Part shown: in pieces, positions 2,964-24,671 of the stretch | Layout of the letters: each line of letters opens with the position of its first letter | How positions within the stretch are numbered: the stretch's first letter is position 1 | Assembly (NCBI GenBank): GCA_945870865.1 | Contig: CAMBTO010000001.1 | Coordinates: 79,487 to 143,486 of the forward strand | Direction of reading: 5' to 3' | DNA: 64,000 nucleotides | DNA from: Klebsiella pneumoniae | GTDB taxonomy: Bacteria > Pseudomonadota > Gammaproteobacteria > Eutrophobiales > Eutrophobiaceae | Translations under genes and position numbers: made by a program | Notes under the pieces: generated by a model | The model's database searches: none | Seen by the model: only the letters and a program-made list of their open reading frames with translations | Told to the model about the DNA's origin: nothing

Positions 2964-5141
2964 TTAGATACATTTCTGGCGTGTCAGGAAATTATACAAC
3001 TCCCTCTTTTCCTGTTCATAACCGCTGATATGCTGGTACTCGTTGTACGAAGCAACGTACTCATTACAATCAAGACTATAACCCGTCTGTTCGTTTACCC
3101 TGGCCTCCTGGTAAAAACCTCTTAGCAGCAAGGCCTGCAGCATGATTGAGATCGTAAAAACTATCATGATTGACGCTGTAAACAGGCGTTGTGCAATTCC
3201 GGAGACATGCATGCCCGGCATGGACAATTTCATATACCTGAGCAACAACATGATCAGCAGCGCAACGAGCGCGATTACAATATAGTTCGTGCTGCCATTG
3301 ATCCCGTTGTAAATTACCGGAAACGCTGCAAGGGCCAACAATATCCCGATCATCTGTGTATACCTGTCCAGCTTCAACCTGCTCTGGATCAGTTGCACGC
3401 CAACAATTAGCGCCACTACACCCTGCCAGTTGCTGTCCTTGAGCAACTGCAATATACCCTTGTAATCAACTATATTCGTCTCTTCATGGCTCAGCATGAT
3501 TGCGCTGAAACCACCCAGCACCATAAACGTAACGTAGGTGAGGTTTGACACCGTTTGATGTTTGAGCAGGTCGGACTTCATAACGGCATAGGCCAGTAAT
3601 ATGGATGCCCCGGCAAACCCCCTCGCCCCATACGTACCCGTTCCCATCCACCAGATGAACCAGGAACCCTGCATCAGAACCTGCAGTGCCATGGCAGCGA
3701 GACCGGCAAAGATAACCAGAAACCTGAAGTCCCTGCGTAATTCGCGATTTGTTATCAGCGCACGTAAAAGGCCATAGACACCGAGCGCAATAGCGGGATG
3801 GTACATCAGCAGGCCATGCCATGGCGAAAACAGCACTTCAAAAAACTTTGCATTGCGCAGGGAGAACATGGAAAACTCCATGTCACCGACGTCATAAGGA
3901 CTCCTGGAAAAACTGTCGCTTACGATATGGTTGAACAACAATAAAAATGCCAGCCCGACCCCGCTGACTAAAGCCAGTATCAGGGTATGTCTTATCACAA
4001 ATACCCGGTTGTCCCTGCCAATCAACGGGGGAGTCAGATTTGATGCGACAAAAATCAGCCACAAACCCGCACACAGTACAATATTCTGGATTTTAACCAG
4101 TAACAGGAAATAGATAACCACACCGAGCAGAAAGGTGACCCGGCTTGTGCGACGGACAATACTTTTGTTGTCCCACTCCATCAGGGCCAACCCTGACAAA
4201 ACAAGAAAGACGGTCCAGCCTTCTGCCGAATATTTATTCAGGTAAAAACCGGCCGGCATAAAAAGCACAATGCCCGCCAGTACCAGAGTGGCCTTTATAT
4301 ATGACCCGGTTGTTGAACGGGCGATATAAATAATCAGCCCCAGATTGGCCAGTCCAAGCAACATGGCAACCAGTGGTGCCGGAAAGGCGCCTGCATAGGA
4401 GAAAATGACGGCCGGTATGGCAGCAAGTAACCCGGCGCCGTATGACCATTGTATTAGCGGCACACCCGTTATGCTTCTGGGAAAACCGGAAAACGTCGCC
4501 AGATCAAAAGTGGAAAAATAATGTGCCCAGGCCAGATAGGCCCCGACATCCGCAGCACCACGCGCCGTCACAATAAAACCGGCGGCCATTAATGACATGA
4601 ACAATCCTGCTGTGATTGCGGCGGGATCATAAGCCACTTTTTTGCCGGCCGCTGTTAACAAAATCATTTGAAAACAGAACGCGAATACTGCTATCAGCCA
4701 CACGTATTTGACCCAGACTGACAACGAACCGGACATTGTGACTTCATAGGCCCTGCCATTGGTACGTGGGTCAGAACAGTCTGTTGCTGAGAAATATAAG
4801 TTATCACCCCAGTGTGAGTAGTTGCCCGCGGCCTGACTGCGGATGTTTTCATGCAGGGCATGCGGCTGTCCTGCGGGCCTGCCATCTTCCAGCAACATTA
4901 ACAACGATGCTGTTGTAGCTGAAACCGAATCAGTTTCGAACCGGGTAATTGGCCAGCTATCGGGTCTTTGATCAAGTTGAATCGTGTATGCGCAGCCATT
5001 TTCATGTTTGACCGCACCACTTTTCAACAGGAAGGTTTGCTGTGTTTGTGTAAATTGTAATGCGGGGATGGTGACAATCCAGGCAAGAGTCACGATAGCT
5101 GCCAGTAATCTCCAGCCTGTCCATGAATAATCTGATGCCAA
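2964..5141 (-). CDS. large polytopic membrane protein, putative GT-C-type (polyprenyl-phosphate-sugar dependent) glycosyltransferase
   Basis: 725 aa. N-terminal TM helix, then a soluble domain of about 130 aa, then more than 10 predicted TM helices. It lies immediately downstream of, and co-oriented with, a Dpm1-like GT2 at a 57-bp gap. I recognised no catalytic motif. Confidence 0.55.
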   Translation of the reverse strand: MASDYSWTGWRLLAAIVTLAWIVTIPALQFTQTQQTFLLKSGAVKHENGCAYTIQLDQRPDSWPITRFETDSVSATTASLLMLLEDGRPAGQPHALHENIRSQAAGNYSHWGDNLYFSATDCSDPRTNGRAYEVTMSGSLSVWVKYVWLIAVFAFCFQMILLTAAGKKVAYDPAAITAGLFMSLMAAGFIVTARGAADVGAYLAWAHYFSTFDLATFSGFPRSITGVPLIQWSYGAGLLAAIPAVIFSYAGAFPAPLVAMLLGLANLGLIIYIARSTTGSYIKATLVLAGIVLFMPAGFYLNKYSAEGWTVFLVLSGLALMEWDNKSIVRRTSRVTFLLGVVIYFLLLVKIQNIVLCAGLWLIFVASNLTPPLIGRDNRVFVIRHTLILALVSGVGLAFLLLFNHIVSDSFSRSPYDVGDMEFSMFSLRNAKFFEVLFSPWHGLLMYHPAIALGVYGLLRALITNRELRRDFRFLVIFAGLAAMALQVLMQGSWFIWWMGTGTYGARGFAGASILLAYAVMKSDLLKHQTVSNLTYVTFMVLGGFSAIMLSHEETNIVDYKGILQLLKDSNWQGVVALIVGVQLIQSRLKLDRYTQMIGILLALAAFPVIYNGINGSTNYIVIALVALLIMLLLRYMKLSMPGMHVSGIAQRLFTASIMIVFTISIMLQALLLRGFYQEARVNEQTGYSLDCNEYVASYNEYQHISGYEQEKRELYNFLTRQKCI

Positions 5142-5198
5142 GACTCCCCCAGGTACATCTATATGTGTAGGTCGCAGGTGTTTTCCTGGCAGATGATT

Positions 5199-5909
5199 CT
5201 ATCTAAACAGGTTGTACTTGATAATACAAATAATCGCCCGCACACCGTCCTTCCAGCCGATCTTTTTTCCCTCGGAATAGGTGCGGCCAAAATAGGAAAT
5301 ACCCACCTCATAGATACGGCAATCCAGTTTTGAGATTTTTGCAATGATTTCAGGTTCAAACCCAAACCGGTTTTCTTCAATTTTTATACCCTGGATTATC
5401 TCCCGACGGAACGCCTTGTAGCAGCTCTCCATGTCGGTAAGATTCAGGTTGGTAAACATATTGGAGAGCAGGGTCAGAAACCCGTTGCCCACCCTGTGCC
5501 AGAAATAGACCACCCGGTGTGGCTCACTACCCATAAACCGCGAACCAATCACAACATCGGCCTTGCCACTGATAATCGGTTGCAGGATCACTGGATACTG
5601 GTTCGGGTCATATTCCAGATCGGCATCCTGGACGATAACAATGTCGCCGGTTGCCGCGGCAAACCCGGTCCGCAGGGCTGCGCCTTTACCCTGATTTATG
5701 TCGTGATACAAAACCTTGCTCACTTTCCCGGATTGCGCGATCAGGTCCCGTAACTTCTCCCTACTGCCATCATGTGAAAAATCGTCAACGATAATAATCT
5801 CCTTGTCGGGATAAGGAGAGTTGTTAACAGCGTCAACGATCTGCTCAATCGTGTTAACCTCGTTGAAACAAGGAATGATAATGCTTAAACGCATAATGCC
5901 AGGATCCAC
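5199..5909 (-). CDS. family 2 glycosyltransferase, polyprenyl-phosphate sugar synthase (Dpm1/ArnC/GtrB-like), soluble
   Basis: RLSIIIPCFNE ... DDFSHDGS ... QGKGAALRTG ... VQDADLEYDP: the GT2 DXD/ED signature of dolichyl/undecaprenyl-phosphate sugar synthases. The likely true start is the Met of MRLSIII at 5894. Confidence 0.85.
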   Translation of the reverse strand: MDPGIMRLSIIIPCFNEVNTIEQIVDAVNNSPYPDKEIIIVDDFSHDGSREKLRDLIAQSGKVSKVLYHDINQGKGAALRTGFAAATGDIVIVQDADLEYDPNQYPVILQPIISGKADVVIGSRFMGSEPHRVVYFWHRVGNGFLTLLSNMFTNLNLTDMESCYKAFRREIIQGIKIEENRFGFEPEIIAKISKLDCRIYEVGISYFGRTYSEGKKIGWKDGVRAIICIIKYNLFR

Positions 5910-6164
5910 TGTCTGGTTTAGGGGGATGGTAGGGACAAACTGTAACCTAATATTGATAGTAAGGCACTACCACCTACAAATTTGCATCACACTGAATCAA
6001 ATCGAGGGCCATGGACGGCACGATGGAACTGACCGGATCTAATCCGGGCGGGCATCCGGGAAGCTATGAGTCAAATTGAATCGGGGTGTACCCTGGGCAA
6101 GCCGTGGTATATTCTTTATTCCGCACAGTTAGTCATTGATCGTCAATTTGAGGGGGGATAAAAC

Positions 6165-6818
6165 ATGATGCGTTGCACCTGGGGTTTATTAATACTGGGT
6201 TTCTTACTGTCTACTGCCTACGCACAGGATTTTGAAGCCCTAAAACAGCAAGCCGAAAAGGGCGATGCGACCGCCCAGGTCAAACTGGGTAAAATGTTAA
6301 ACACCGGCGAAGGTGTACCCAGGAATGATGCCGAATCGCTAAAGTGGTACACACTGGCGGCGGAGCAAAACAATTCCCAGGCCCAGAATGATCTGGGAAA
6401 TATGTACCGCGAAGGCAAAGCCGTCCCTAAAAATGATGTTGAAGCGACCCGGTGGTACACGCTGTCGGCCGAACAGGGCCATCCCAGCGCGCAGAATCAC
6501 CTCGGTTACAATTACTACATCGGCGCAGGCGTCCCCAAGAATGATGCCGAGGCGGTCAAGTGGTACAAACTCGCCGTAGTACAGGACCATGCCCACTCCC
6601 AGTTTAATCTGGGTGTCATGTACGAGAAGGGTGAAGGCGTACCTGAAAATGCCGTTTCTGCTTATGTATGGTACTCGCTTGCGGCGGCGAAAGGATTCAA
6701 GCCTGCTAAAGAAAGCGTCGAGGCGATTAAAGCAAAACTGACTGAAGTGCAGATTACCGAGGCCGGGAAGCTGGCGTCGCGGTGCAAGGAGTCCGAGTAT
6801 AAGGATTGTAATTTATAA
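6165..6818 (+). CDS. Sel1-repeat (TPR-like) secreted protein
   Basis: Signal peptide MMRCTWGLLILGFLLSTAYAQD followed by five tandem Sel1-like 36-aa repeats (AxxG..KNDAEAVKWY.LAAEQG...AQ..LG.MY..G.GV). Confidence 0.85.
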   Translation: MMRCTWGLLILGFLLSTAYAQDFEALKQQAEKGDATAQVKLGKMLNTGEGVPRNDAESLKWYTLAAEQNNSQAQNDLGNMYREGKAVPKNDVEATRWYTLSAEQGHPSAQNHLGYNYYIGAGVPKNDAEAVKWYKLAVVQDHAHSQFNLGVMYEKGEGVPENAVSAYVWYSLAAAKGFKPAKESVEAIKAKLTEVQITEAGKLASRCKESEYKDCNL

Positions 6819-6898: not shown

Positions 6899-6935
6899 TT
6901 TATGTTGCGCGATTCCACGAATCGCGCAACATAAA
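6899..6935. repeat. perfect 14-17 bp palindrome (ATGTTGCGCGATTC-cac-GAATCGCGCAACAT) in the convergent intergenic region
   Basis: Read directly from the sequence. No U-tract follows on either strand, so it is not a canonical intrinsic terminator. It could be a protein-binding palindrome or a REP-like hairpin. Confidence 0.4.
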
Positions 6936-8840: not shown

Positions 8841-8916
8841 TGGTGGGCCGTGGGCGGTTCGAACGCCCGACCACCTGATTAAAAGTCAGATGCTCTACCG
8901 GCTGAGCTAACGGCCC
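8841..8916 (-). tRNA. tRNA-Lys (anticodon UUU), CCA encoded
   Basis: The reverse complement reads GGGCCGTTAGCTCAGCCGGTAGAGCATCTGACTTTTAATCAGGTGGTCGGGCGTTCGAACCGCCCACGGCCCACCA. It has a cloverleaf with anticodon loop CTTTTAA, a T-loop GTTCGAA and a 7-bp acceptor stem, and is near-identical in architecture to E. coli tRNA-Lys. Confidence 0.9.
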
Positions 8917-9450: not shown

Positions 9451-9482
9451 GAATATCTACCGATTTGGGGCATCCTGTCCGG

Positions 9483-10139
9483 ATGATGACCACACTGCGT
9501 AAATATCTGATCGCCGGCCTTTTGGTCTGGGTACCGCTGGCGGCAACAGTGGTCATTATCAAGCTGCTCATCGACATGATGGACATGATCCTGCTGCTGT
9601 TCCCCGAGCAGTATCATCCGGACAAGGTCTGGGGTTTTACCCTGCCCGGCACCGGTCTGTTGCTGGCGCTACTTATCCTGCTGGTCACCGGGTTTCTCGC
9701 GGCCAACCTGATAGGCCGCCGACTCGTGCATCTGTGGGAACACGTGCTCGGGCGGATCCCACTGGTGCGCAACATCTATAATGCCTTCAAGCAGATAACC
9801 CGTACTGTACTCGCCTCGGACAACAAGTCGTTTCGCAAGGTGGTACTGATCGAGTTCCCCACGCCCGGCCTGTGGAGTGTGTGTTTTCTGACGAATGAAG
9901 GTATCAATCTCGATTCAAAGGCGCTACCGGCCGATATGTGCTCGGTGTTTGTGCCGACCACGCCGATACCGACGACTGGCTTTAATATCATCCTGCCGAA
10001 GGACAAGGTCATTGAGCTCGATATCACCATTGAAGAGGCGTTTCGCATGATCATGTCGATGGGAGTGGTCATGCCGGATCGGCAGATCCGCGAGATATTG
10101 GCCGCCGCGACGGTTGCGAAATCAGCGCCCGCCTCGTAA
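9483..10139 (+). CDS. DUF502-family membrane protein
   Basis: MTTLRKYLIAGLLVWVPLAATVVIIKLL...GRIPLVRNIYNAFKQI: a conserved DUF502 architecture, commonly found between fmdB and aspS in gamma-proteobacteria. Confidence 0.8.
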   Translation: MMTTLRKYLIAGLLVWVPLAATVVIIKLLIDMMDMILLLFPEQYHPDKVWGFTLPGTGLLLALLILLVTGFLAANLIGRRLVHLWEHVLGRIPLVRNIYNAFKQITRTVLASDNKSFRKVVLIEFPTPGLWSVCFLTNEGINLDSKALPADMCSVFVPTTPIPTTGFNIILPKDKVIELDITIEEAFRMIMSMGVVMPDRQIREILAAATVAKSAPAS

Positions 10140-10166: not shown

Positions 10167-11954
<1,788 letters not shown>

Positions 11955-11971
11955 CCAGTCGCACACTTGTG

Positions 11972-12016
11972 TTAGTGTAGTAAGTACAATAATATCTGGT
12001 GTACTTACTACACTAA
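11972..12016. promoter_or_regulatory. perfect 17-bp inverted repeat TTAGTGTAGTAAGTACA-N11-TGTACTTACTACACTAA; candidate NrtR operator and/or aspS terminator hairpin
   Basis: Read directly from the sequence. It lies 8 bp upstream of the start codon of the Nudix-wHTH regulator gene and 18 bp downstream of the aspS stop. Confidence 0.5.
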
Positions 12017-12023
12017 GCAGCTT

Positions 12024-12689
12024 ATGCATACCTACGCATTCCCCCATCCTGCCGTCACCACCGATATTGTTATCTTCACATTACAGGACGGACAATTAAA
12101 GGTACTGCTGATCCAGCGTGCGCATGAGCCGTACAAGGATCACTGGAGCCTGCCGGGCGGCTTTGTCGAGATCGACGAAGATCTGGAGGCCGCCGCATTA
12201 AGGGAATTGCAGGAAGAGACCGGAGTAACCGGCGTGTATCTGGAACAACTCTATACCTTTGGACAGCCGGGTCGCGACCCGCGCGAACGGGTGATCTCGA
12301 TTGCCTACTACGCGCTGGTGCCGAACGATTCGCTACACATCCGTGCTGACAGTGATGCGAAGAATGTGGGCTGGTTTGCCTGCCACCAACTGCCGGTACT
12401 CGCCTTTGACCATGACCGGATTATCGAGCTGGCACGGAACCGGCTCGCCGCCAAGCTCGAATATTCGACCATTGCGCTGCAGTTCATGCCGGCCGAGTTC
12501 ACGCTGGGCGAACTGCAAAAGGTGTACGAAACCATCCTCGACAGTACGCTGGATAAACGCAATTTCCGTAAACGCATCCTCGCGCTCGACTGTATCGAGC
12601 AAACCGGCACCAGCCGCCGGGACGGCAAACACCGCCCGGCACGTTTGTTCAGGCGCATAGCGCCTGGAAAAGTTGAATTCATCAAATAG
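12024..12689 (+). CDS. nrtR: Nudix-related transcriptional regulator NrtR-like (Nudix domain plus C-terminal winged-helix)
   Basis: Nudix box GGFVEIDEDLEAAALRELQEETG, with a C-terminal region (...LGELQKVYETILDSTLDKRNFRKRILALDCIEQTG...HRPARLFRR) matching the NrtR wHTH domain as I recall it. It sits immediately upstream of nadA at a 9-bp gap. Confidence 0.65.
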   Translation: MHTYAFPHPAVTTDIVIFTLQDGQLKVLLIQRAHEPYKDHWSLPGGFVEIDEDLEAAALRELQEETGVTGVYLEQLYTFGQPGRDPRERVISIAYYALVPNDSLHIRADSDAKNVGWFACHQLPVLAFDHDRIIELARNRLAAKLEYSTIALQFMPAEFTLGELQKVYETILDSTLDKRNFRKRILALDCIEQTGTSRRDGKHRPARLFRRIAPGKVEFIK

Positions 12690-12698
12690 GCAGACACT

Positions 12699-13775
12699 GT
12701 GAATACCATCACACCTGTGCGCAAGGACTATCGAATGTCACCGGACACCGTACCGGAGACGGTGTCCTCCCATCTCGGACAGAAGCAACGTGACGACCTG
12801 ATCGACCGCATACGCCAATTACTGATCCGCGAGAACGCGGTCGTGGTTGCTCATTATTATACCGACCCGGATCTGCAACTGCTCGCCGATGCGACCGGTG
12901 GCTATGTATCGGATTCGCTCGATATGGCCCGGTTTGGTAATGAATCGAAGGCCGATACACTGGTCGTCTGTGGCGTACGCTTCATGGGCGAGACCGCGAA
13001 GATCCTCAACCCGGAAAAACGCGTGCTGATGCCCGATCTGGAGGCGACCTGTTCACTCGATATCGGTTGTCCACCGGATAAGTTCTCCGCCTTCTGCGAC
13101 CAGCACCCGGACCGGACCGTTGTGGTGTACGCGAACACCAGTGCAGCGGTCAAGGCGCGTGCCGACTGGATGGTCACCTCTGGCAGCGCGGTTGATGTGG
13201 TCAATCACCTGAAGGCTAAAGGGGAAAAAATCCTGTGGGCGCCCGACATGTACCTCGGTCAATATGTGCAAGATAAGACCGGCGCTGACATGGTGCTCTG
13301 GCAAGGCAGCTGTATCGTGCATGAGGAGTTCAAGGCGAAAGAGCTGCTCGAATTAATGAAATTACATCCGCAGGCGAAGGTATTAGTGCACCCGGAATCA
13401 CCGGCCGCCGTGGCCGGGCTCGCCGACGTGGTCGGTTCGACAACGACCATGATCAAGGCGGCGCAACAGATGGATGCAAAGACCTTTATCGTCGCGACCG
13501 ACAGGGGCATCTTCTACAAGATGCAGCAGGCCGCGCCGGACAAGATCTTTATCGAGGCGCCGACCGCCGGCAAAAGTGCGACCTGCAAGAGCTGCGCCCA
13601 CTGCCCGTGGATGGCGATGAATAACCTGGAAAAACTCGCGGTTACGCTGGAAACCGGCAGCAACGAGATCCGGGTGGGTAAGGCGATAATCGAACGTGCC
13701 AAACGGCCAATCCAGCGTCTGCTCGATTTTGCAAAAACGCAAAATCAGGTGTTTTACGGCAATAACGACGCCTGA
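12699..13775 (+). CDS. nadA: quinolinate synthase A
   Basis: Strong colinear similarity to E. coli NadA ([51 protein letters not shown], [13 protein letters not shown]). The start is GTG at 12699, or alternatively ATG at 12735. Confidence 0.92.
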
Positions 13776-13784
13776 CACGGACTG

Positions 13785-14420
13785 ATGAGCGGAGATACCA
13801 TTATCCTCGTCCACGGCCTGTGGATGAACGGTATCGACATGACTCTGCTGGCCAAACGACTGGAGAAGGCGGGATACGAGACCGCACAGTTCAGTTACCG
13901 CAGCATGGGCAATACGCCCCGGGAGAATGCGTCCCGGCTCGACAGTTTTGCCACAGGGCTTGATGCACCGGTTATCCATTTTGTCGGTCACAGCCTCGGC
14001 GGCATTGTCATACGCCATCTGTTTTTCGACTACCCGAACCGCAAACCGGGCCGGGTGGTAACACTTGGTACACCGCACCGGCCCAGTTACTCCGCCCATA
14101 ACCTGTCGAGTTATACACTGGGCAAGCTGATGCTGGGCCAGAGTGTGGTTGATGGCCTGCTCGGCAATATCCCGCCCTGGAGTGATGTGCATGACCTCGG
14201 CAGTATTGCCGGTACGATGGAATTCGGGCTGGGGCTGTTTTTCAACGGCCTGCCCTCCCCGAATGACGGGACTGTGACGGTCGAAGAAACCCGACTGCCC
14301 TATATGAAAGACCATGCCAGCGTTCACGCCTCGCACTTCGGTCTGCTGCTTTCACCCACCACTGCCGACTTGTGTCATAATTTCCTGCGCGACGGTTTGT
14401 TTGGCCGTGTCGCAGTTTGA
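13785..14420 (+). CDS. alpha/beta-fold hydrolase (lipase/esterase-like)
   Basis: ILVHGLW oxyanion region and GHSLGG nucleophile elbow; 211 aa. Confidence 0.75.
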   Translation: MSGDTIILVHGLWMNGIDMTLLAKRLEKAGYETAQFSYRSMGNTPRENASRLDSFATGLDAPVIHFVGHSLGGIVIRHLFFDYPNRKPGRVVTLGTPHRPSYSAHNLSSYTLGKLMLGQSVVDGLLGNIPPWSDVHDLGSIAGTMEFGLGLFFNGLPSPNDGTVTVEETRLPYMKDHASVHASHFGLLLSPTTADLCHNFLRDGLFGRVAV

Positions 14421-14474
14421 GTAAGCGGTGGCAAATGATAAACTTGTATACAACTTAACACGGGTGTCTCCGAC

Positions 14475-16407: not shown

Positions 16408-16444
16408 AAGTACGTGATCATTGCTTACGTTAAAGTATGTCAGC

Positions 16445-16521
16445 CGGACCGACAGGCTCGTTCCAGACACGCTGTGAATACATCCATGCGGCACACGGTC
16501 TTGCACGAGCCTGTCGGTCCG
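16445..16521. repeat. 17-bp perfect inverted repeat (CGGACCGACAGGCTCGT ... ACGAGCCTGTCGGTCCG) with 43-nt spacer in the ruvA-ruvB intergenic region
   Basis: Read directly from the sequence; it lies within the 176-bp ruvA-ruvB spacer. Confidence 0.6.
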
Positions 16522-16655
16522 TCTGTTCATGCTGATATACCGCAAGGTTAAAATGATGAAAATTAGCAGATTCTGGCATATGAATGCGATCATTGAGGTT
16601 CTATAATGACGGACAAATCAACGCATCAATCCAGAATGCACAGACACCAGACATA

Positions 16656-24570: not shown

Positions 24571-24671
24571 GGACTAAATAACTGTTCCGAAATCCTGTTC
24601 AGATTGGGCGCGGGAATATTACCGTGCCCAATCTGAACTGTCGTGGATTTCGGAACAGTTATTTAGTGTCC
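24571..24671. terminator. ~100-bp near-perfect inverted repeat filling the entire queC/RND convergent intergenic gap (probable bidirectional terminator or structured element)
   Basis: GGACTAAATAACTGTTCCGAAATCC..TTCAGATTGGGCGCGG-loop-CCGTGCCCAATCTGAA..GGATTTCGGAACAGTTATTTAGTGTCC gives about 45 paired positions with two small bulges. Confidence 0.5.

Follow-up and report, generated by a model that had tools for sequence, protein, structure and literature searches.

NrtR regulation of genes for nicotinamide adenine dinucleotide (NAD) is well known, and operons in which nrtR is followed by nadA (quinolinate synthase) are known in Actinobacteria. Here we describe an NrtR-family regulator encoded in a stretch of 64,000 nucleotides of contig CAMBTO010000001.1 (the window, whose positions are used throughout). 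In this stretch, nrtR lies between aspS and nadA and is immediately preceded by a perfect 17-nt inverted repeat, which consists of parts of two tandem NrtR boxes.

Two proteins of known structure provide the main comparison. SoNrtR of Shewanella oneidensis (SO1979; PDB 3GZ5, 3GZ6, and 3GZ8) shares with the window NrtR the fold of a Nudix domain joined to a helix-turn-helix of the winged type (wHTH; 137 bits, template modelling (TM) score ~0.73), a palindromic operator of 21 bp, built on a GT-N7-AC core, that occurs as tandem sites, and the arginines that contact ADP-ribose. However, SoNrtR controls prs-nadV, and thus salvage, rather than nadA; its own Nudix signature is degenerate, and the protein is catalytically inactive; and its recognition helix reads QGKSFRRR, whereas that of the window protein reads DKRNFRKR. 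The best solved relative is BtAraR of Bacteroides thetaiotaomicron (BT0354; PDB 5BS6, 5DD4, and 5DEQ), which matches the window NrtR with 157 bits and 38% identity and has an identical recognition helix. Two dimers of BtAraR bind two tandem 21-bp semipalindromes that lie 3 bp apart, the same layout as in the window. Nevertheless, BtAraR senses L-arabinose and controls arabinose genes, and its nucleotide cleft is closed by Gly89, where the window NrtR has Arg87.

The actinobacterial regulators, MsNrtR of M. smegmatis and NdnR of C. glutamicum (ndnR-nadA-nadC-nadS), resemble the window system as auto-repressors of de novo NAD synthesis. In M. smegmatis, NrtR represses itself and controls nadABC, as experiments have shown, and ADP-ribose releases it from DNA. 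Operon structures of the form '#nrtR-nadA-...' are listed for Corynebacterium, Bifidobacterium, and others. These systems differ from the window in the mycobacterial operator, GTTTTCGA-N7-TCGAAAAC, in having nadB and nadC in the same operon, in their degenerate Nudix signatures, and, for NdnR, in a response to NAD. NuhA of Synechococcus sp. is like the window NrtR in its intact Nudix signature, GX5EX7REUXEEXGU, a likeness drawn from the signature, but it belongs to another phylum and another gene context. According to a 2008 paper, NuhA has high ADP-ribose pyrophosphatase activity, and it was suggested that such members combine catalysis with regulation.

Genes of the nadA, nadB, and nadC type are also controlled through palindromic operators by NadQ, the enterobacterial NadR, and NiaR. 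NadQ has a homologous C-terminal helix-turn-helix domain (Foldseek matches 7Q91-7Q94). However, the effector domains of these proteins are of other kinds, in place of the NrtR Nudix domain of the window protein, and the operators of NadQ (ttATRCTCannntGAGYATaa) and NadR (TGTTTA-N6-TAAACA) are both unlike the window boxes. In the founding 2008 survey, gammaproteobacterial NrtR regulons comprise salvage and universal steps only (prs-nadV, pncAB, nadD, and nadE). Within the literature surveyed, then, the gammaproteobacterial cases do not include the nrtR-nadA control seen here in uncultured Gammaproteobacteria. This comparison relies on the BtAraR paper and, for curated motifs, on the published text rule (21 bp, GT-N7-AC). 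To that extent, the locus is a clean and well-footprinted case in which de novo NAD synthesis, at nadA, is under NrtR control in Gammaproteobacteria.

Two NrtR boxes in front of nrtR

The nrtR gene (12024-12689, + strand) encodes a 221-aa protein and is separated by a 69-nt spacer from the stop codon of aspS (aspartate--tRNA ligase; 10167-11954, + strand; NCBIfam NF001750, 890 bits; Pfam tRNA-synt_2, GAD, and OB). The inverted repeat (11972-12016) starts 18 nt 3' of this stop codon and ends 8 nt 5' of the ATG at 12024. Its arms, TTAGTGTAGTAAGTACA (11972-11988) and TGTACTTACTACACTAA (12000-12016), are complementary at 17/17 positions around an 11-nt loop, exactly as an earlier sequence-only reading of the locus had described. 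By our own estimate, a perfect 17-nt inverted repeat within 60 nt would arise by chance at ~64000 x 60 / 4^17 = ~2e-4 per 64 kb. The window contains three perfect inverted repeats of at least 17 nt, all of them intergenic.

The sequence-only reading had further taken the repeat to be one long palindromic NrtR operator. The assignment to NrtR stands, but the single palindrome gives way to two tandem 21-bp boxes. Box 1, TTAGTGTAGTAAGTACAATAA (11972-11992; 24.3 bits), is a near-palindrome with a GT-N7-AC core, and box 2, CTGGTGTACTTACTACACTAA (11996-12016; 21.2 bits), has the same core. The boxes are separated by a 3-bp gap, so that their centers lie 24 bp apart, and both follow the consensus TTAGTGTA-N5-TACACTAA. 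The left 17 nt of box 1 and the right 17 nt of box 2 make up the perfect repeat. Of the 17 arm positions, 12 are set by the box consensus (TTAGTGTA / TACACTAA and TACA / TGTA), and the extra complementarity amounts to only five central bases, GTAAG / CTTAC. A single 17-N11-17 operator was considered and rejected: orthologous loci have two independent 21-bp boxes whose centers are non-complementary, and they, too, carry a box at the position of box 1 (~-42 from the ATG). The window box centers pair at 7/7 positions, compared with 0-5/7 in 16 other two-box loci and 2-5/7 in the closer relatives L086-L091. The perfect repeat is therefore best taken as a by-product of adjacent near-palindromic boxes whose centers have become mirror images in this lineage, possibly by chance or by a local inverted duplication. 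The case carries a caution: what looks like a "flawless long palindrome" can consist of two ordinary boxes set side by side.

The boxes were evaluated with a weight matrix. From 80 retrieved loci encoding relatives of the window NrtR, 25 sites in 16 other loci were used to build it, leaving out the window and its near-twin L001. The training sites score 17-31 bits, a range within which both window boxes fall. Among 500 shuffles of the window, 20 bits was reached by two and 24 bits by none. In the 62 loci outside the training set, the matrix gives 40 matches that reach 17 bits or more, where shuffles would predict 0.4, and 30 of these 40 sit no more than 120 bp 5' of nrtR, an interval that makes up 1.6% of the sequence. 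Where the downstream gene of a remaining match was identified, it heads an nrtR-containing operon in every case (8/8), namely pncB-nrtR-..., nadE-nrtR, or NADAR-PARG-nrtR.

Position and spacing of the boxes are conserved as well. Most gammaproteobacterial loci and many others have one or two boxes with centers ~45 and ~20 nt 5' of the nrtR start, and the two-box layout is found upstream of nrtR orthologues at dozens of loci. The spacing of 24 bp is kept exactly in the close relatives L001 and L086-L091, which together with the window form an alignment of eight loci whose NrtR proteins are 75-93% identical; in distant relatives it ranges from 23 to 29 bp. In L001 (CAMDWI010000003.1), which differs from E. 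coli in gene order and encodes proteins 89-99% identical to those of the window, the operator has 100% identity with the window operator, compared with 85.6% for nrtR DNA, although this is weak evidence, as equally long identical runs occur in aspS. L083 and L084 have the order DUF502-aspS-nadA-hydrolase-yebC-ruvCAB without nrtR, and no box is found anywhere in their 10.6 kb; these two loci thus serve as a natural negative control. The placement of nadA under NrtR control, which the sequence-only reading had proposed, is accordingly backed by the matrix scores, by the conserved position of the boxes, and by the lack of boxes where nrtR is absent. More broadly, the motif TTAGTGTA-N5-TACACTAA is widespread and accompanies the DKRNFRKR helix across several phyla, which helps automatic regulon annotation in uncultured lineages.

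In relatives from Planctomycetota and Verrucomicrobiota (L049, L037, L076, L063, and L033), where it lies 1.5-2 kb 5' of nrtR, the motif heads operons of the types pncB-nrtR-(ADP-ribosylglycohydrolase, PARG, or pncA), NADAR-PARG-nrtR, and nadE-nrtR. These operons link this NrtR group to ADP-ribose-processing enzymes. Published NrtR regulons are similar, for example '#pncB-nrtR-pncA; #nadE' in Blastopirellula.

A predicted promoter overlaid by the boxes

According to the founding paper on NrtR, most NrtR motifs are palindromes of 21 bp built on a conserved GT-N7-AC core and are located either across promoters or in the interval from promoter to start codon. In the window, a -35-like hexamer, TTGTGT (11967-11972, + strand), abuts and overlaps the left edge of box 1, and a -10-like hexamer, TAATAT (11990-11995, + strand), extends over the end of box 1 and through the 3-bp gap; the spacer between the hexamers is 17 nt. 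CTTGT and TAwTAT are invariant in the eight close loci. In distant orthologues, TTGAC(T/A) abuts box 1, and TAAGCT, TAATAT, or TATAGT is found at the junction of box 1 and the gap. We infer from this pattern that the aspS-nrtR spacer holds a sigma-70-type promoter overlaid by the two NrtR boxes, which would be a classical layout for a repressor. Since the boxes overlap the conserved -35/-10 pair, auto-repression of nrtR-nadA is implied, and a double NrtR operator that auto-represses nrtR-nadA is, in our view, very probable.

In the proposed mechanism, one NrtR dimer would bind each box through its wHTH, with the DKRNFRKR helix reading the GTGT / ACAC half-sites. Box 1 would occupy the spacer between the two hexamers and reach into the -10 element, and box 2 would cover the predicted start site and the leader, or 5' untranslated region. 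Bound NrtR would thus block RNA polymerase and repress its own operon, nrtR-nadA, and probably also the hydrolase gene that follows. A NAD-derived nucleotide, most likely ADP-ribose, bound in the Nudix pocket would then reorient the wHTH domains, the repressor would leave the DNA, and quinolinate synthase would be made. In addition, NrtR may hydrolyze its own inducer, because the catalytic signature of its Nudix domain is intact and does not vary within the clade.

The NrtR protein

The protein shows these features of the NrtR family: a Nudix domain, an NrtR wHTH, a cognate 21-bp operator, and linkage to NAD genes. The Nudix domain (Pfam PF00293 NUDIX, 84 bits) spans residues 16-134, and the C-terminal wHTH (PF21906 NrtR_WHD, 86 bits against a cut-off of 27) spans residues 152-210. 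In the AlphaFold2 model (predicted local distance difference test (pLDDT) score 85, predicted TM (pTM) score 0.82), the wHTH is formed by helices at 150-187 and a beta-hairpin at 191-211, so that the NrtR-like wHTH C-terminus expected from the sequence is borne out by structure prediction. The full-length model matches 5bs6 (BtAraR) and 3gz6 (the SoNrtR-DNA complex) with Foldseek TM scores of 0.72-0.77, and superposes on the structure of the SoNrtR Nudix domain with ADP-ribose, 3gz8, with a root-mean-square deviation of 2.1 A.

The recognition helix, D177-KRNFRK-R184, is that of BtAraR residue for residue. In the BtAraR-DNA crystal structure, the residues said to 'define the GTGT DNA sequence motif' are Lys179, Arg180, Asn181, and Lys184 in this helix plus, in the wing, Lys204 and Arg205. 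The window NrtR equivalents of the base-contacting Lys179, Arg180, Asn181, Lys184, and Arg205, namely K178, R179, N180, K183, and R204 (wing), are invariant in 27 orthologues, and GTGT / ACAC is the conserved core of the NrtR boxes.

The Nudix signature reads G46 FVEID E52 DLEAAAL R60 E61 L62 Q E64 E65 T G67 V68, and all of its signature residues are invariant in the same 27 orthologues. Of the 80 loci, 52 encode it intact; degenerate forms occur in Competibacter and a few others. Two related proteins of 361-365 aa from megabase-scale contigs (P0009 and P0016) have an additional complete N-terminal Nudix domain before the Nudix + wHTH unit. In E. coli, another Nudix gene, nudB, is found at the junction of aspS and yebC; homology of NrtR to NudB was considered and discarded, as the two proteins match over no more than 62 residues around the Nudix box (34 bits). 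The practical gain for annotation is modest: the label 'NUDIX hydrolase / 8-oxo-dGTP diphosphatase' becomes NrtR repressor.

Effector and catalytic role

In SoNrtR, Arg41 and Arg98 contact ADP-ribose. These residues align with R32 and R87 of the window NrtR, whereas the arabinose-binding BtAraR has Gly at the second position (the numbering includes a 3-residue tag offset deduced from the alignments). In addition, distant orthologues adjoin genes for pncB, nadE, pncA, PARG, ADP-ribosylglycohydrolase, and NADAR. ADP-ribose would thus be the most likely effector of the window NrtR, an assignment that we hold with moderate confidence on the strength of aligned residues and gene neighborhoods.

Several points weigh against the picture of an ADP-ribose-responsive NrtR repressing nrtR-nadA through two boxes. 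DNA binding, repression, and effector are all deduced by comparison. With 3/6 and 4/6 matches, both promoter hexamers are weak, and a consensus scan does not call them; the promoter is therefore proposed on its conservation. No further operator copy is present in the 64 kb, where the next scores of 12.2, 9.6, and 8.8 bits are within the range of the shuffles, and the window offers no second NrtR target besides the nrtR-nadA operon. NrtR binding does not account for the 7/7 complementarity of the box centers. The protein scores 185.9 bits (residues 5-210) with the NCBIfam model NF050029, 'ADPR responsive transcriptional repressor', for which the cut-off is 400, and so it falls outside that narrowly defined equivalog, though within the family. 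Finally, among proteins of known structure the closest in sequence is BtAraR, an arabinose sensor, and not SoNrtR, and C. glutamicum NdnR, which likewise heads an nrtR-nadA operon, responds to NAD and not to ADP-ribose. The last three points, together with the logic of end-product feedback as a control for a de novo pathway, lend some weight to a variant that keeps this operator and repressor and replaces the effector by either NAD (or nicotinic acid adenine dinucleotide or nicotinamide mononucleotide) acting as a co-repressor as with NdnR, or an unrelated ligand as with the sugar-sensing AraR and XylR branches. We consider such a variant unlikely, since Arg87 stands, like Arg98 of SoNrtR, where BtAraR has its cleft-closing Gly, the full Nudix signature is of the kind typical of ADP-ribose pyrophosphatases such as NuhA, the orthologues share operons with PARG, ADP-ribosylglycohydrolase, and NADAR genes, and there is no sugar gene in any context examined. 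The same intact signature, and the precedent of NuhA as an NrtR-family protein that is a highly active ADP-ribose pyrophosphatase, could also be taken to mean that the Nudix protein works mainly as an ADP-ribose pyrophosphatase beside nadA, bringing products of NAD breakdown back into use, with some other factor binding the boxes. This is very improbable: the C-terminal wHTH is complete and modelled with confidence, and the residues of its DNA contacts are invariant; the boxes accompany nrtR and are missing where nrtR is missing; and sister lineages such as Competibacter keep nrtR-nadA and the boxes despite a degenerate signature, which indicates that regulation does not need catalysis. Furthermore, the roles of enzyme and regulator are not exclusive.

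The repeat as RNA, and the origin of the block

Two other explanations take the inverted repeat as something besides a pair of NrtR boxes. It was suggested in the sequence-only reading that the same hairpin might double as the aspS terminator, and in the stronger form of this idea, the repeat is mainly an RNA hairpin, i.e., an aspS terminator or attenuator or a stabilizing 3' stem-loop, whose likeness to NrtR boxes is secondary. The repeat does begin shortly after the aspS stop codon, it folds as RNA at -27.3 kcal/mol (z = -3.1), and no other terminator fits in the 69-nt spacer. Furthermore, relatives with longer spacers seem, by eye, to have separate terminator-like hairpins after aspS, and the other perfect intergenic inverted repeats in the window resemble terminators. 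However, the AT-rich stem has 5 G-C pairs of 17 and a loop of 11 nt, it is followed by ACACTAAGCAGCTT and thus by no U-tract, and the terminator scan gives no call. In the eight close loci, pairing is kept only at the positions fixed by the box consensus, while 3-5 of the 8 sequences break the six central pairs, and covariation in this alignment is not above that of shuffles (59/500 at least as high). The predicted nrtR transcript starts inside the repeat, and therefore the hairpin could be formed only by RNA reading through from aspS. With a hairpin that is limited to this lineage, does not covary, and lacks a U-tract, the terminator role is unsupported, and a repeat that is mainly an RNA element is improbable. 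The perfect hairpin is a peculiarity of the lineage rather than the selected feature, and read-through from aspS is possible.

The position of the repeat at the left boundary of the three genes nrtR, nadA, and hydrolase could also suggest that it is a remnant (a terminal repeat or recombination site) of their recent horizontal acquisition. The sequence-only reading had indeed treated the three genes as inserted into a conserved aspS-yebC junction, and in Pseudomonas-type genomes, yebC directly follows aspS. The idea of an insertion does not hold up. From one flank of the block to the other, the GC content is flat, at 0.55-0.57. Many metagenome-assembled genomes share the gene order, with protein identities to the window of only 50-76%, and the arrangement is kept down to ~50-60% identity. 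Mobility genes are absent, the right boundary has no counterpart of the repeat, and the nearest tRNA gene (8841-8916) is ~3 kb away. In addition, the junction is variable in general, as E. coli SMS-3-5 (L081, NC_010498.1, 1255-4797) has aspS-nudB-yebC-ruvC. A recent insertion is thus extremely improbable. The repeat is best read as two NrtR boxes, at the head of a block nrtR-nadA-hydrolase that is old and vertically conserved in uncultured Gammaproteobacteria.

Two of the other inverted repeats of the window are probably terminators: a perfect 17-nt repeat with a 3-nt loop at 6899-6935, after the gene at 6165-6818, and, between queC and an acrB-like gene convergent to it, a nested pair at 24573-24667 (perfect outer arms of 23 nt, inner arms of 21 nt). 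An imperfect repeat at 16441-16525, with 28-nt arms that are 89% complementary and a 29-nt loop, lies in the 176-nt ruvA-ruvB spacer. A search of Rfam gives no riboswitch or RNA family in the region, and its sole match in the window is a tRNA (8844-8916).

Gene order and the extent of the operon

As the sequence-only reading had proposed, and as Pfam and NCBIfam confirm, a Nudix-wHTH regulator, nadA, and an alpha/beta hydrolase lie between aspS and yebC. The nadA gene (12699-13775, + strand; TIGR00550, 367 bits) starts 9 nt after the nrtR stop, and the hydrolase gene (13785-14420, + strand) starts 9 nt after the nadA stop. It is followed by yebC, ruvC, ruvA, ruvB, ybgC, tolQRAB, pal, and cpoB. 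Scans of 54 of the larger open reading frames with Pfam or NCBIfam find no NAD gene besides nadA in the window; nadB, nadC, and pncB, upstream of which the sequence-only reading had proposed to look for further operator copies, are thus absent from it. The nrtR and nadA genes probably share one transcript. In the hydrolase-yebC spacer, there is a putative extended -10-like element, TGATAAACT (14436-14444, + strand), and similar TG(a/c)TAAACT elements precede yebC in L001, L042, L068, L072, and L085. This element suggests a separate promoter for yebC-ruvC and an nrtR operon that stops before yebC. Given this element and the 9-nt gene gaps, the operon is likely nrtR-nadA-hydrolase, the hydrolase gene being probably co-transcribed. 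After TGATAAACT and just 5' of yebC, there is also a 10-bp palindrome, TTGTATACAA (together 14436-14456).

Adjacency of nrtR and nadA is found in 26 of the 80 loci and in six further ones. The order aspS-nrtR-nadA-hydrolase recurs in L001-L005, L007, L013, and L017, in five of which yebC-ruvC comes next. Variations include five extra genes between the hydrolase gene and yebC-ruvC in L085 and a reverse-strand gene between aspS and nrtR in L082. In Competibacter the arrangement is ruvC<yebC<hydrolase <> nrtR>nadA, and in Sedimenticola, Sulfuriferula, and others, nrtR-nadA is found alone with varied neighbors. Directly 5' of aspS in the window there is a gene for a DUF502 membrane protein (9465-10139). 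A DUF502 gene is also present 5' of aspS in L002-L004, L013, and L082-L085, and with this conserved gene, the syntenic block extends from DUF502-aspS to tol/pal.

The hydrolase

The hydrolase gene encodes a small, lid-less, lipase/esterase-like alpha/beta hydrolase of 211 aa (Pfam Abhydrolase_6, DUF676, and PGAP1). The AlphaFold2 model (pLDDT 90) shows a minimal lipase-like fold, for which the best matches are bacterial lipases at 14-21% identity, and the residues of the putative triad, Ser70 (GHSLGG), Asp161, and His184, are all invariant. In every examined context that carries it, the gene adjoins nadA (the window, L082, L085, L090, L042, L045, L068, L072, L078, and L083/L084). This includes L083/L084, where it lies at 5001-5630 next to nadA without nrtR and NrtR boxes. 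In Competibacter, where the hydrolase gene is divergent from nrtR-nadA, the NrtR boxes are located in the shared spacer.

The locus thus raises two side questions, the role of the hydrolase and that of a catalytically intact repressor. In a rather doubtful proposal, the hydrolase, with its invariant triad and its constant linkage to nadA even without nrtR, would be a genuine, hitherto unrecognized partner of quinolinate synthase and a member of the NrtR regulon, and not a passenger; in parallel, the NrtR of this clade would be an enzyme-repressor that degrades its own inducer. If true, an inducer-degrading NrtR would give a self-limiting pulse of nadA expression.

A further gene with a possible connection to NAD synthesis is found in L082. 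Right after nrtR-nadA-hydrolase and convergent to the hydrolase gene, a NadX-like gene (5627-6415, - strand) encodes aspartate dehydrogenase domains (PF01958 / PF03447), and this gene may be a substitute for NadB in that genome.

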